This document shows, piece by piece, positions 11,417 through 16,528 of a stretch of 64,000 bases of DNA. Within the stretch, counting starts at the first letter, position 1, and every line of letters begins with the position of its first letter. Source of the stretch: an uncultured Rhodospirillales bacterium (lineage in GTDB: Bacteria > Pseudomonadota > Alphaproteobacteria > Rhodospirillales > UBA2165); NCBI GenBank assembly GCA_913055735.1, contig CAJXKD010000002.1:984150-1048149 (forward strand). The letters are read 5' to 3'. Made by a program: the position numbers and the translations under genes. Below the pieces are notes generated by a model. It worked only from the letters and a program-made list of their open reading frames with translations. It was not told where the DNA came from and searched no databases.

Positions 11417-12721
11417 TTATTCTGCCGGTTGAGCGGCGGCGCGGGCCCCAGCGCGTTTGTACACCCGTGCCGCCCACCCCGCCGCCACGGCGAAGCCCAG
11501 CGTCACCAGCATCAGGATGGCGGAGGCGAGGAAAATCCCTGCGGGTACGTCGTGATCCATGATGGTGCCGTTGAGTACCGGACCGATGAAGCCGCCGACA
11601 CTGAACCCCGTCGAGACGAACCCGAACGCCTTGCCCGTGGCGCCCGCGGGCGCGATGGACGAAACCATCAGATCGCGCGACGGCATCACCGCGCCAATCA
11701 TGAAGCCTGCAAAGGTCAGCCCCGCGACCACCCCGCCGAACGGCAGCAACGACGCGGCGATGGCGATCAGCGCCGCCGCAGACAACCCATAACCGATGGC
11801 GGCGAGCACGTCGAAGCGCTTGAGCCAGGTAGTGACCATGCCGCCCGCGAACACGCCGATGGTGATGCCCCACAGATAAGTGGCGATGGCCTGGTTGGCG
11901 GCCACCACGTCGATCTCGAACATCTGGATCAGCGCCGTGATGCCGAAGGTCTGAATGCCGTTGCCGGACAAAGCGGTGGCCACATAGAAACCGAACATCA
12001 GCAGGATCGGCGTCGAGAACACAAAGGAGGCCGCACCCGGTTTCTTGGCGTCCGCCTTCTCGGCTTTTGCCGCCGCGAGCGCGGGCGTTTCCACACCCTT
12101 TAGCAACTTGGCGAACACGATCAGCAACACAGCGCCGGCCAATCCGGCGAGGCCCAAAATATGGATAATACCGCGCCAGTCGAAATGCGGCGCCAGGAAC
12201 GCGACCACCGTCGGCGTTGCGGCGAAGCCGAGGAAACCGCCGGTGGTGTGGATGGCGTAAGCCTTGCCGCGCCAGCCTGGCCGCACCCGGTCGGTGAGGA
12301 TGGAATAGTCGGAGGGATGGAACTGGCTGTCGGCGAGCCCGGCGACGGCGGCGAGCACCACCAGCACCAGCACGGACTCCGCGAAGCCCATGAGGAACAC
12401 CGACGCCGACACGATGGCGAGGCCGCCGATGAGAAACGGCCGCGCGCCGATCTTGTCCATATAGACGCCCGCCGGATACTGCCCCGCCGCCGACATGCCG
12501 GCATAGGCGGTCATGATCAGGCCGAACAGGACGAAGGCGCTTTCGGCGCCGAGATCGGCGCGGATCAAGGGCAGCAGCGACGGCACGGTGAGGACGAAGA
12601 AATGGCTGAAGAAATGCGCCATGGTCACGAGACCGATGACGGTGAGTTCCTTCGACGTGCTGGAGGTTTCTGCGGCTACTGGGCTGGTCGGTCCGGGCAT
12701 ACGGACGGAATCCTTTTTCAT
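11417..12721 (-). CDS. MFS transporter
   Basis: 434 aa and highly hydrophobic, with about 12 predicted TM stretches and a central loop. MFS-like D-R/K loop (MDKIGARP). Confidence 0.8.
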   Translation of the reverse strand: MKKDSVRMPGPTSPVAAETSSTSKELTVIGLVTMAHFFSHFFVLTVPSLLPLIRADLGAESAFVLFGLIMTAYAGMSAAGQYPAGVYMDKIGARPFLIGGLAIVSASVFLMGFAESVLVLVVLAAVAGLADSQFHPSDYSILTDRVRPGWRGKAYAIHTTGGFLGFAATPTVVAFLAPHFDWRGIIHILGLAGLAGAVLLIVFAKLLKGVETPALAAAKAEKADAKKPGAASFVFSTPILLMFGFYVATALSGNGIQTFGITALIQMFEIDVVAANQAIATYLWGITIGVFAGGMVTTWLKRFDVLAAIGYGLSAAALIAIAASLLPFGGVVAGLTFAGFMIGAVMPSRDLMVSSIAPAGATGKAFGFVSTGFSVGGFIGPVLNGTIMDHDVPAGIFLASAILMLVTLGFAVAAGWAARVYKRAGARAAAQPAE

Positions 12722-12823
12722 TTCTTCTTATATGGGGCCTCTGCCCACTCTTCGATCCCTATGCCTCCAGGCCCGGTTTGGCAAGCACTTCACAATACCA
12801 GCGAGACAACCACCAGGACGAAA

Positions 12824-13762
12824 CTAGCTTGGTGGAACAATCTGGTTATCAGGTAGATTAATCTGTTCGATTGTCTCGTTTCCGAATTTGTTGCGAATTC
12901 TGCCCAGGAACTCAGGTTCGACTGCGCGGATAAAACTTAAGTAGCCGACGAGATACTTTATTTCCTCTGGAGTGGCATTCCCGGTTCGAAATCGATGTAT
13001 CAATCCACGAACATAACGTTTCTGCCCTCTTCCAATGGATATGCCACCTTCGTTTGTTAAAACCAGGCCTGTCACTCTCATTCGCTTTTTTTTCGAAGAG
13101 TGGTGTGTTTTTTGATCGTTGATTTGAAGGTGCGGGTAGTCGAGATTCTCGGCTACATGTCGAACATGGTTAATCAGGCCACCAAGTTGATCAGGTAGAT
13201 TCGACGAAAAAGTCAGATCATCTGCATATCGAGAGTATCGAATTCCGAGTTGATTACATCGTTCGTGAATCAGCGTGTCAAAGACATACATTATCGTATT
13301 GGACACAACCGGTGAACTTGGCGCTCCGATTACCAATGATCCACGCTTGCATACTGCAGCGCATACAAAGGGAATTTCGTCAGCACTAAGGAGATCCGGA
13401 AGAAGGTGTAAATTATTGTTCAGAAGGCTTCTGATATCTGCTGCCGTGATTGACCTAAAGAATTCGGTAAAATCCATCTTTAATAGAAAACGCTGCCCCT
13501 GGTGAACACGAGCATTGTGATAGATATTGATGTTACTTCTGTAGGCAAACGCTGCTTCGTGAACGGGAAGCCTTCCGAAAATTTCTCTGGCCATCCATCT
13601 TTGGACTACTTTCAGTCGTCTCGACGGGTGTTCAATTTGGCGAACCCCACCATCCCTTTTTTCTATCGGATAAGATTTATAACGATGATTGGCTGCAAGT
13701 ACGGTCGCAGCTACAAAACCTTGGCTGAGGCCCAAATCCGCAGAAATTTTCTCAATAATCAT
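12824..13762 (-). CDS. retron-type reverse transcriptase (RNA-directed DNA polymerase)
   Basis: 312 aa, RT domain only. RT1 GGVRQIEHPSRRLKVVQ. Retron-typical NAxxH (YHNARVHQG). RT3 LKMDFTEFFRSI. RT4 GAPSSPVVSN. RT5 YSRYADDLTFS. RT7 NDQKT...RVTGLVL (retron VTG). Thumb-like tail LVGYLSFIRAVEPEF. ATG 13762 overlaps the upstream stop (ATGA). Confidence 0.9.
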   Translation of the reverse strand: MIIEKISADLGLSQGFVAATVLAANHRYKSYPIEKRDGGVRQIEHPSRRLKVVQRWMAREIFGRLPVHEAAFAYRSNINIYHNARVHQGQRFLLKMDFTEFFRSITAADIRSLLNNNLHLLPDLLSADEIPFVCAAVCKRGSLVIGAPSSPVVSNTIMYVFDTLIHERCNQLGIRYSRYADDLTFSSNLPDQLGGLINHVRHVAENLDYPHLQINDQKTHHSSKKKRMRVTGLVLTNEGGISIGRGQKRYVRGLIHRFRTGNATPEEIKYLVGYLSFIRAVEPEFLGRIRNKFGNETIEQINLPDNQIVPPS

Positions 13763-14661
13763 GCGTTTTGTGCCCTCAACTCTAACAGATGTGACGCATC
13801 TCTCTGATAGACGCTTAAAATTTTGGCCTTAATTTCGTCAGTTGAGATTCCCTCTATCTCGGCCAATGTAAAGTCGCTCACATTCGCGAAGAAAAGAGGC
13901 TCGTCCTCGCCTCTAGTTATATATTTCGCTGAGGCCAATACAGATACAATATAACGCACTTCGCTATAATTTGATTTTCCAAAAATATTCTTGAACAGAA
14001 TAGAAAGCTCAACCGGGTGAAGAATGGGAAAAACTGAAAATAAATGAATTGCGATATAAAATTTCTGCTTTAACCCAGCATTCTCAATTTCGTCTCCTTC
14101 TATTCGATAGCTCTTTTTGTGTCCCGCACTTCCAAGTACACCCTTTATTGGCTCAAAATCTGGTTCATTGCCGTCACAAACAACATATACGGTCTGACCA
14201 AATTGAGATTTTTGGTTGATTTTGTGTATTGGACCAAGATTTAGAAATGAAGGATCTGCCTGATGACCAATTTGATTTGCAACTAATGTTTTCGCGGAAA
14301 GATCATCAAACGCGGAAAAATATCCTACTTCCGCAAACGAGCCTGCGCTTTCAGGAAAAATGAGAACAAAATCAGCGACATCGCAGATAAATCTCTCAAG
14401 ATCAGAGATATTGATGAAATTGTGATCGCCGTCGGCACGAATATCCGAAAATGAACTTTCGGCTAAAAATATTTTGTAATCCGGCAAGTTTTCAGCCGAG
14501 TACTGAAGAAACGCACTTCGGTGGTTTTTCTCGTTCGTGGGTCCTCCGCAAACAAACAGTAGTTTGTGATCTCTGCGTATAAGTAATCTGCCAGAACGAA
14601 AAATTTGGGCCACTTCCTGCACAAGTGCTTGCCCTTGAGGCAATTGGAGAAAGTGGCCCAC
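13759..14661 (-). CDS. putative retron effector: N-terminal Rossmann/NDT (nucleoside deoxyribosyltransferase)-SLOG-like domain plus C-terminal winged-helix-like domain
   Basis: 300 aa with a GTG start at 14661 (AAGGGG 9 nt upstream). LLFVCGGP...VLIFPESAGSFAEVGYF resembles the glycine-rich loop and catalytic-Glu strand of NDT/SLOG-type folds. Its position immediately upstream of the RT, with coupling to it, mirrors type II retrons (Sen2/St85 order). Confidence 0.6.
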   Translation of the reverse strand: MGHFLQLPQGQALVQEVAQIFRSGRLLIRRDHKLLFVCGGPTNEKNHRSAFLQYSAENLPDYKIFLAESSFSDIRADGDHNFINISDLERFICDVADFVLIFPESAGSFAEVGYFSAFDDLSAKTLVANQIGHQADPSFLNLGPIHKINQKSQFGQTVYVVCDGNEPDFEPIKGVLGSAGHKKSYRIEGDEIENAGLKQKFYIAIHLFSVFPILHPVELSILFKNIFGKSNYSEVRYIVSVLASAKYITRGEDEPLFFANVSDFTLAEIEGISTDEIKAKILSVYQRDASHLLELRAQNA

Positions 14662-14885
14662 TTCAAGAACCCCTTACCTAACGCGAGGCGATATCTAAAG
14701 TCGCCTTGCAGAACTGCGAGGCGACTTTAGATATCGCCCGCAGCATGACGTTCAATTCCAAACGGCTTGGCTATAGCACCAAGCGCAAGACACTCAACAA
14801 CCGTGAGGTGTCCAACTAAGAGGCAGGCTACAACGGTTACCTACTCAAAGGAAGCTGTCAAGACGGCGACCAAAACTTTAGCGAA
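14662..14885 (-). ncRNA. candidate retron non-coding RNA (msr-msd) region
   Basis: A 314-nt gap lies upstream of the effector on the coding strand. It contains a perfect 19-bp inverted repeat (14687-14705 / 14720-14738, extendable by about 3-4 pairs into the loop). It also has two short hairpins (14765-14784 gcttgg/ccaagc; 14789-14812 gacac(c)tca/tgagtgtc). A third partial copy of the arm (ctaaagt[tttgg]tcgcc) lies at about 14865-14881. The a1/a2 repeats and the branching G could not be fixed by eye. Confidence 0.4.
14687..14738. repeat. perfect 19-bp inverted repeat (ggcgatatctaaagtcgcc / ggcgactttagatatcgcc), 14-nt spacer
   Basis: Read directly from the sequence. The spacer ttgcagaactgcga is itself partly self-complementary. 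No U/T-run follows on either strand, so it is not a classical intrinsic terminator. Confidence 0.95.
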
Positions 14886-14975
14886 CACGAGATTTCATTA
14901 AACCGCGCATAGATTGGGTGCGTTCTTTAGCTTTCGATACCTCTGCCTTCGGGCCAGATTTGGCATCCCACTTGC

Positions 14976-15368
14976 TCACAGGGTAAAAATACCACCTATG
15001 AAAATAAATAGGCCCCCGATGATAAACAGGCCGAGCGACGTCCACATTAACGATACGCTGAAAAAACAAATCCTCGGTTCTTTTAGGTTGAATCCGAATA
15101 TTTTCCCGGCGGGAGGGCTATACCCGTGGCTTTCATACTCAAGAGAACATAAACGCCGGAACCGATTGTGAATGACTGCACAAACCAGCCCAAGCTGAAA
15201 TGCCAAAAGCGCCCACAAAATCGACCAAGAAAGTGGGGCAAACTCCGATTTGCCGATAACGGTGGGCAAAAGAGCGAGAAGGGCAACAGCGCCACCGCCG
15301 TTCAAAAGCACCAATCCTTTGACAACATCGCTGTCAATTTGTGCGCGTATTTCCAATCCTTTTGTCAT
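14976..15368 (-). CDS. small integral membrane protein (about 3 TM), function unknown, within the AT-rich island
   Basis: 130 aa with hydrophobic stretches (GLVLLNGGGAVALLALLPTVI; LSWSILWALLAFQLGLVCAVI; ICFFSVSLMWTSLGLFIIGGLFIFIGGIF). Strong SD GGAGGA 8 nt upstream of ATG 15368. Same strand as the RT operon. Confidence 0.6.
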   Translation of the reverse strand: MTKGLEIRAQIDSDVVKGLVLLNGGGAVALLALLPTVIGKSEFAPLSWSILWALLAFQLGLVCAVIHNRFRRLCSLEYESHGYSPPAGKIFGFNLKEPRICFFSVSLMWTSLGLFIIGGLFIFIGGIFTL

Positions 15369-15519
15369 TGAGCAAATCCTCCATCCGGAAATTGAAGCTA
15401 CAAGGCGCCCAATAGCAGAAAAGGACTAGCCCAGACGGGCTTGATCCCTGTTAAAGCTTTTATTCTAAGGTTTGGATAGTTTAAGTCAGTACGCGGGATG
15501 AGCGCAAAGGCACGAGATA

Positions 15520-15945
15520 ATGCCGCCGATTAAACAAAAAATGCACCTAATCTTCGTCGGTGCTATTGCGATCTGGTTGGGCGTAACATCGATCCAAACC
15601 GCAGTGGCAGACGAGACGTTGAGCCGCGACGCGCTGACGGCGCTGTTCGCCAACAAAAGCATCGTTTATCCGTATAAAGAGTCAGACGAAAACGCCGTCG
15701 TCTTCATGGACCGGTTCGGCGGCACGGAGACCTACGTGCCGTGCGAGTTTTCCCACGGCACATGGTGGGTGAGCGAGGATGCGCGCCTGTGCTGGCAGGA
15801 CAGCCAAGAAAACAATATGGGCGATCCGGCGCCGCAGTGTTTCACGCCGCAGATGTCGGGAAGCGACATCGAACTCACCGATGCAAGCGGCGCGCTCGCC
15901 GTTGCCGGCAAGCTCATCGAAGGCAGCCGCATTCCCACCGGCTGA
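15520..15945 (+). CDS. secreted hypothetical protein (signal peptide; possibly DUF995-like)
   Basis: N-terminal signal sequence MHLIFVGAIAIWLGVTSIQTAVA|DE. Four Cys in a G-T-W-W-V...LCW...QCF pattern. No catalytic motif recognised. Confidence 0.6.
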   Translation: MPPIKQKMHLIFVGAIAIWLGVTSIQTAVADETLSRDALTALFANKSIVYPYKESDENAVVFMDRFGGTETYVPCEFSHGTWWVSEDARLCWQDSQENNMGDPAPQCFTPQMSGSDIELTDASGALAVAGKLIEGSRIPTG

Positions 15946-15982
15946 CTGATCGAGTATCCCGATCCCGGCGCGTGACGCCGGG

Positions 15983-16462
15983 CTAGATCAACGCAAGAAG
16001 AAAACACACCAGCGCCGCTGCTGACGCCGCCGTGCGCACGTGGTTCCAGGCGGTCCAGCGGCGCAGATAGTCGGCCCACAATTCCTCGCCGGCGGCAGTG
16101 CCCACCTCGCTCGCCGCAAGGGCGTTGTTCATCGGTACATTGAAGATCACGGTTACCAGGAATCCCCCGACGATATAGAGGGTGCTACCCGCGAGCAGCC
16201 AGCCGCTGCCGGGCGCGCCCCAGGCGAACAAGCAATACACCGCGAGAACGGCACAGGCCGCGAGCGCGCCGAAAAAGATCACGAAGAAAAGAGGGTTCAG
16301 GATGGTGACGTTCATTGCCTTCATGGCAGTCATTCCCTCAGCCCGAGACAAACCACCGAGCGCCTGCATCACGCAACGGGAAAAGGCATAGAAAATTCCT
16401 GCCATTAACCCCGCGCCGAGGGCGGCAAGAACGATCACGATGGGAAGCCATTGTCCGCTCAT
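15983..16462 (-). CDS. DUF1772 (anthrone-oxygenase-like) membrane protein
   Basis: Four TM segments and the family-typical FNVPMNNALA...LWADYLRRWTAWNHVRT. Start set at ATG 16462 (MSGQW). Confidence 0.7.
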   Translation of the reverse strand: MSGQWLPIVIVLAALGAGLMAGIFYAFSRCVMQALGGLSRAEGMTAMKAMNVTILNPLFFVIFFGALAACAVLAVYCLFAWGAPGSGWLLAGSTLYIVGGFLVTVIFNVPMNNALAASEVGTAAGEELWADYLRRWTAWNHVRTAASAAALVCFLLALI

Positions 16463-16528
16463 GTGGCTATTTAATCCCAATCACCACAGACGGGCAAAGG
16501 CCTCTTGGAAGGCAAAATGTCGCGGAGA

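Follow-up and report, generated by a model that had tools for sequence, protein, structure and literature searches.

A probable type II-A1 retron with an RcaT/St85-family effector in an alphaproteobacterium-like genome

We examined a minus-strand gene in a 64,000-nucleotide stretch of DNA (hereafter the window) and found that it very probably belongs, as the effector gene, to a type II-A1 (St85/Sen2-like) retron with all of its three components, which would make up a toxin-antitoxin system directed against phages. On the minus strand the operon runs in the order promoter-like box, msr-msd non-coding RNA (ncRNA), effector gene and reverse transcriptase (RT) gene. The two protein-coding genes are the following.

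13759..14661, minus strand: effector gene, RcaT / retron St85-family effector, 300 aa (from the ORF, family profiles, AlphaFold2 and Foldseek)
12824..13762, minus strand: retron reverse transcriptase, St85 family, 312 aa (from NCBIfam, PADLOC and Pfam)

The effector ORF is intact, with 300 codons from a GTG at 14661 to a TGA at 13759. Its bounds, and the motifs quoted for it in an earlier sequence-only reading of this DNA, were present exactly as given there; LLFVCGGP corresponds to residues 34-41 and FVLIFPESAGSFAEVGYF to residues 98-115. The public gene call begins at GTG 14622 and yields a protein of 287 aa, 13 residues shorter. Because the first 13 residues are conserved, being kept in homologues (M1, P8 and G10) and in the closest related locus (L001), we prefer the 300-aa start. 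An alignment of 50 homologues revealed that F36, V37, C38, G39, G40, R48, F51, E68 and E89 are invariant, as are F102, P103, E104, G107, E111, F115, F139 and G143. This invariance across 50 homologues indicated that the effector motifs are under selection and are not chance occurrences. Identity between the effector and most of its homologues was 28-35%. The environmental relatives came from Alphaproteobacteria, Acidobacteriota, Nitrospira, Binatia and other groups, with ∼30% identity to each other.

Against NF038232, the NCBIfam equivalog for the "retron St85 family effector protein", the effector scored 143.2 bits (cut-off 100); positions 6-277 of the 277 in the profile were aligned with effector residues 29-285. 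The PADLOC model NDT_II-A (PDLC02928) matched residues 15-287 (2.2e-40). NCBI already uses the name 'retron St85 family effector protein' for the effector homologues, and PF28093 is listed in the database for every one of them; a Pfam scan of the effector with a model set that does not contain PF28093 returned only a spurious HyaE match below the cut-off. Judged from these profile matches, the effector belongs over its full length to the curated RcaT / St85 retron effector family. Its scores against the family models (137-143 bits) were well under the 327 bits that an enterobacterial member (L034) obtained against its own subtype model, and we therefore regard it as a divergent branch of the family.

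An AlphaFold2 model of the effector, built on the 50-sequence alignment, had a pLDDT of 92.6 and a pTM of 0.88, and two domains are predicted from it.

Effector residues ∼25-165: predicted NDT-like N-glycosidase domain
Effector residues ∼185-300: predicted winged-helix DNA-binding domain with two terminal helices

In the N-terminal half of the model, a strand at residues 33-38 is followed by a Gly loop, and a strand at 98-101 is followed by a helix at 106-116, which agrees with the strand, Gly-rich loop and second strand that had been read from the sequence. A sequence search of solved structures gave significant matches to the Ec86/Eco1 retron effector only (7v9x_C and others, 4e-14), covering effector residues 34-162 and thus the N-terminal domain only. 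Foldseek against the PDB likewise ranked the Ec86/Eco1 effector first (7xjg_J and 8qbl_E), at full length (311-317 columns), with E values of 7e-12 to 5e-11 and TM scores of 0.55-0.57. The next Foldseek matches were DNPH1, MilB, BcmB, YtoQ and nucleoside 2'-deoxyribosyltransferases, with probabilities of 0.97-1.0, and TM to target was 0.44-0.66 for the matches in the NDT/DNPH1/MilB-BcmB superfamily.

The N-terminal half had been described beforehand as NDT-, SLOG- or TIR-like. The NDT fold was borne out by the Foldseek matches. The TIR and SLOG readings found no support, since the effector had no Pfam matches to TIR or SLOG/LOG and no TIR or LOG/SLOG structures occurred among the best 50 PDB fold matches. 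Classical NDT models (PF05014/PF15891) gave no sequence match to the effector in Pfam/HMMER searches at E values up to 1, and the kinship of the effector with NDT is therefore at the level of fold, a relationship already noted for the effector cluster by Mestre et al. 2020 (PMC7736814). The Rossmann-like fold of the N-terminal domain is that of the NDT, DNPH1 and MilB-BcmB N-glycosidases. Unlike members of that superfamily, the effector has an extra C-terminal winged-helix domain and a link to a retron; the substrate of Eco1, moreover, is NAD(P)+ and not a deoxynucleoside as in the NDT superfamily.

The C-terminal part of the model consists of a helix at 197-210, a strand at 213-214, helices at 216-227 and 232-244, and strands at 248-250 and 257-259, followed by two terminal helices within residues 274-299, and the pLDDT of the C-terminal region was >84. 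The topology predicted for residues 197-259 follows the order of a winged helix, as had been suggested for this half of the protein, and DNA binding is a prediction from the structure.

Alignment and invariance together pointed to a predicted catalytic triad of F36, E89 and E111 in the effector. The codons concerned, together with that of a further invariant Glu, lie at these positions.

14329..14556, minus strand: span of the predicted catalytic triad codons (from alignment and invariance)
14556-14554, minus strand: codon of F36
14397-14395, minus strand: codon of E89
14331-14329, minus strand: codon of E111
14352-14350, minus strand: codon of the invariant E104 of FPESAG

The three predicted catalytic residues align with Eco1 F33, E84 and E106, and the active-site segment FPESxGSFxExG is conserved between the effector and Eco1. 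The Glu of the effector that follows the PSxG loop occupies the nucleophile position of the NDT/DNPH1/MilB superfamily. The gap between the two Glu residues is 22 residues in the effector (E89-E111), in Sen2 (E85-E107) and in Eco1. The catalytic triad of Sen2 RcaT is F28/E85/E107, and the E107Q mutation abolishes its toxicity (bioRxiv 10.64898/2026.10.13.758329); PDB entry 8qbl is the Eco1 E106A mutant, and Eco1 E106 pairs with effector E111 (in SFAEVG). The sequence-only reading had proposed the Glu of FPESAG, E104, for mutation. This residue is invariant, but the residues shown to be catalytic in relatives, Eco1 E106 and Sen2 E107, align with E111 instead.

The RT gene lies directly downstream of the effector gene, with its ATG overlapping the effector TGA (ATGA). 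The protein carries the RT motifs NARVH at residue 83, YADD at residue 179 and VTG at residue 230, and it matched Pfam RVT_1 (6e-21) and scored 319 bits with NCBIfam NF038233 ("retron St85 family RT"), for which 235 is the cut-off. The best PADLOC model was RT_II-A PDLC02939 (8.6e-108, 358 bits), and RT_I-A was second with 291 bits. When one genome was scanned for each species, 50 loci with an effector homologue were found, 46 of which had an RT homologue within a few dozen bases downstream of it; among the 4 loci without a downstream RT, 3 are interrupted by a contig end, and L021 looks truncated. The closest locus, L001, belongs to an uncultured Hyphomicrobiales MAG, and its proteins are 67% and 59% identical to those of the window. 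The homologues are thus encoded next to RTs, the opposite of what the earlier reading had named as a refuting observation, and the earlier proposal of a type II retron effector beside an RT is substantiated by the curated profiles, by the Ec86/Eco1 matches and by a covarying ncRNA upstream.

This ncRNA and its putative promoter lie within the spacer upstream of the effector, which is 314 nt long.

14669..14824, minus strand: msr-msd non-coding RNA, 156-nt core (from the MFE fold, covariation and a covariance model)
14824-14817, minus strand: a1
14816, minus strand: candidate branching G
14813-14788, 14784-14765 and 14764-14749, minus strand: msr stem-loops
14741-14683, minus strand: msd hairpin; core of 25 bp at 14738-14687
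14676-14669, minus strand: a2
14856..14862, minus strand: promoter-like -35 box CTTGACA (from conservation with L001)

Conservation of the spacer with L001 begins at the CTTGACA box (14862-14856), which we read as a putative promoter -35 box; a consensus scan called no -10 box. The ncRNA is a canonical retron msr-msd, with an a1/a2 stem, a branching G and an msd hairpin. The MFE fold closes a1 and a2 as an 8-bp stem, and comparison of the msd stem with that of L001 revealed 5 pairs changed on both sides, all 5 of which are still paired. A covariance model built from two sequences, the ncRNAs of the window and of L001, gave full-length matches in ∼28 further loci, located on the strand of the effector and ending 0-200 nt before it; the effectors of these loci are only ∼30% identical. 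In the covariance-model alignment, 90.4% of cells were paired, compared with 38-44% when the partners were slid by 1-3 columns. In this alignment, which is fitted to the covariance model, 44 of the 54 pairs had double changes, among them all 23 pairs of the msd stem and 7 of the 8 in a1/a2. When 13 loci were analysed independently with MAFFT and RNAalifold, the structure obtained again contained a1/a2, the first and second msr stems and the msd hairpin at its base, and 15 pairs covaried. The junction TTA-G ... TAAG hardly varies, and 29 of the 30 full-length matches have the G after TTA; the TTA-G context of G14816 is typical of a retron branching guanosine, as in Ec86. An Rfam scan of positions 12000-16500 returned chance matches only, with no retron msr family among them.

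The retron of the window is of type II-A1, with the mapping of PADLOC model numbers to subtypes itself one that we infer. The RTs of the window, L002 and L037 matched PDLC02939 followed by RT_I-A, and their effectors matched the NDT model PDLC02928. In contrast, the RTs of the Eco1-like loci from Photobacterium and Serratia (L034 and L041) matched PDLC02941 followed by RT_XIII/III-A, and their effectors matched the NDT model PDLC02930 (327 bits); the ncRNA covariance model gave no match in the Eco1-like loci L032-L042. Because the RT and NDT models and the ncRNA group the window apart from the Eco1-like loci, we assigned it to II-A1. The II-A1 retrons (Sen2/St85, Vch2 and Eco3) have an RT clade and ncRNA type in common with I-A, whereas II-A3 (Eco1) has a clade-9 RT (PMC7736814).

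The locus resembles Retron-Sen2 (St85) in the order ncRNA, effector and RT, in scoring above the cut-offs of both St85-family HMMs, in the NDT-like plus DNA-binding architecture of the effector, in the spacing of the F/E/E triad and in an RT clade common with I-A. In addition, the start of the RT in the window (...SADLGL...) recalls the D9/L10-L12 contact of Sen2. It differs from Sen2 in its divergent sequence and its alphaproteobacterium-like genome, and also in its msd, which contains neither a GATC nor a CCWGG site, GATC being the site at which Sen2 detects Dam methylation. Retron-Eco1 (Ec86; PDB 7v9x, 7xjg and 8qbk-8qbm) is the best solved-structure match in both sequence and fold; despite the full-length fold match, however, the fold-aligned identity is only 18-19%.

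The known systems suggest how the three parts may work together (PMC7736814; PMC12673091; bioRxiv 10.64898/2026.10.13.758329). By analogy with Sen2 and Eco1, the RT would prime on the 2'-OH of G14816 and copy the template beside a2, and the product would be an msDNA of ∼70-85 nt with a long hairpin. The winged-helix domain and terminal helices of the effector may bind the msd stem-loop and the RT N-terminus, as the equivalent C-terminal parts do in Sen2 (bioRxiv 10.64898/2026.10.13.758329), and the RT-msDNA complex would hold the effector N-glycosidase inactive. If the analogy with Sen2, Eco9 and Eco1 extends to the trigger, then, once a phage activity has modified or destroyed the msDNA, the effector would be freed or re-arranged, and the released N-glycosidase would arrest the infected cell, resulting in abortive infection. 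The msDNA-altering phage activities in Sen2, Eco9 and Eco1 are DNA methyltransferases (bioRxiv 10.64898/2026.10.13.758329; PMC12673091). In Sen2, methylation of the msDNA at GATC lets toxic tetramers form (bioRxiv 10.64898/2026.10.13.758329), and the chemistry of Eco1 comprises NAD(P)+ hydrolysis and ADP-ribosylation (PMC12673091).

The word toxin may not apply literally to this effector, since some RcaTs (Eco1 and Eco3) are non-toxic on their own. It is conceivable, if on balance unlikely, that the gene encodes a non-toxic type II-A effector, an intrinsic dimer, harmless alone, that acts as an NAD(P)+ hydrolase only in an RT-msDNA filament after the msDNA has been modified. RcaT clades do differ in this respect, with dimeric members being non-toxic and tetramer-forming members toxic (bioRxiv 10.64898/2026.10.13.758329), and the only solved structures that we matched are those of the non-toxic Eco1 effector. 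However, the RT, effector and ncRNA models place the locus with II-A1 and not with the Eco1-like II-A3, and Sen2 itself is toxic.

The type II-A1 retron stands out from its surroundings in the window. GC content is 0.36-0.47 between ∼12722 and ∼15550 and 0.60-0.68 in the flanks, which delimits a 2.8-kb island. Of 41 related genomes, only the window's own had the effector family, in single copy; the other 40 lacked it. Among genomes that carry the flanking MFS gene, the closest, G011 (73% identity), keeps the arrangement nfu-alkA-gloB-MFS, and its synteny with the window stops at the MFS start; for this reason the borders of the island are drawn from GC alone. The low-GC island showed neither an integrase nor a repeat signature. 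Taken together, the low-GC island, the presence in 1 of 41 genomes and the synteny ending at the island indicate that the retron module is a horizontally acquired accessory element.

The island also contains a gene for a membrane protein.

15368..14976: 130-aa membrane protein, within the island and upstream of the ncRNA

We considered this membrane protein as a fourth retron component and rejected it. It was absent from all 50 related loci, and its homologues sit in non-retron contexts, one of them beside an integrase and an HEPN_AbiU2 gene.

That the acquired module is now a decaying or silent remnant, whose intact-looking genes have lost expression or function in the host, appears very improbable. 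A canonical -10 box was not found, and the related locus L021 retains an ncRNA and half an effector without an RT, both of which would agree with decay. Nevertheless, both ORFs of the retron have their full length and lack none of the invariant and catalytic residues, every helix of the ncRNA is kept, the genes are translationally coupled, and the effector model is confident throughout. Still less credible is a new effector subfamily that is superficially NDT-like and has another fold or target, because the 28-35% identity to most homologues, the absent Pfam NDT match and the restriction of sequence similarity with the Ec86 effector to the N-terminal domain are outweighed by full-length profile matches above curated cut-offs, by the full-length Ec86 effector fold match, and by an ncRNA family and RT clade common to homologues that NCBI names St85-family effectors.

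Similarity at motif level only, possibly marking such a new subfamily, had been suggested by the sequence-only reading. This suggestion fails because the St85/RcaT match (NF038232) is full-length and passes the equivalog cut-off and because the homologues are already named. Our results support the view that the locus adds to a known family, one that is curated, structurally characterised and mechanistically studied.

The msd of this type II-A1 retron contains two GATATC sites, which are also kept in L001. In the msd stems of the window and of this closest relative, the GATATC palindromes are kept and the intervening sequence co-varies. None of the methylation motifs GATC, GANTC, CCWGG and GATATC was common to the msd stems across the loci. 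The GATATC palindromes would be consistent with an msd that senses a GATATC- or GAT-specific adenine methyltransferase, an idea that we mention only as a lead. The Shine-Dalgarno sequence of the effector is located inside a2; therefore, folding or processing of the ncRNA might gate translation of the effector. We raise as speculation, and as improbable when its parts are taken jointly, that the locus represents an environmental II-A1 branch in which the msd stems are tuned to phage enzymes other than Dam/Dcm and in which effector translation is a2-gated.

The value of these findings lies mainly in annotation, in that the type II-A1 retron they describe is well formed and comes from an environmental genome that is alphaproteobacterium-like. 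With its ncRNA boundaries, branching G and catalytic residues mapped, the locus could serve as a divergent retron for msDNA production. The covariance model, which finds the ncRNA in ∼28 distant loci, aids the annotation of retrons in uncultured lineages.

The putative ribosome-binding region of the effector overlaps one of the inverted-repeat arms (a1 and a2) that close the retron ncRNA.

Window 14662-14676, minus strand: Shine-Dalgarno-like AAGGGG of the effector, within the ncRNA a2 arm
Window 14606-14660: 16-nt inverted repeat, 88% complementary, flanking effector codons 1–18

The AAGGGG motif lies 8 nt upstream of the effector GTG at 14661 and within a2; therefore, the ribosome-binding site would be covered by a1/a2 pairing. 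The 16-nt repeat is placed between this GTG and a second candidate start, GTG 14622, the later of the two and the one taken by the public gene call.

A partial locus, L021, was found in a related Rhizobiaceae MAG.

L021 2828-3513: ncRNA and N-terminal half of the effector (residues 1–172)

No RT followed within 3 kb, and L021 is probably a decayed retron.

Upstream of the retron in the window, and in the same orientation, lies a gene for a small membrane protein.

Window 14976-15368, minus strand: 130-aa protein with three TM segments, in the same low-GC island as the retron

Its homologue family is well conserved (50–75% identity), carries no Pfam domain, and is found without retrons, for instance in Rhodanobacter (L064), where the neighbours are genes for a phage integrase and HEPN_AbiU2, or at L063, next to genes for an FGGY kinase and a fatty-acid hydroxylase.

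Effector homologues are encoded by OK490413 and 12 other phage records (Klebsiella, 33.4 kb, P2-sized), with 30% identity over residues 33–195, which fits the known carriage of retrons by prophages and satellites.

The msd stem was compared with that of the closest related retron locus, L001.

Window 14683-14741, minus strand, and L001 240-292: msd stem with GATATC palindromes

Palindromes are kept in both stems (two in the window, four in L001), and the bases separating them show compensatory changes. Other related loci contain GATC, GANTC or no such motif. The GATATC palindromes may have arisen by chance or may be a sensing site for a phage methyltransferase.
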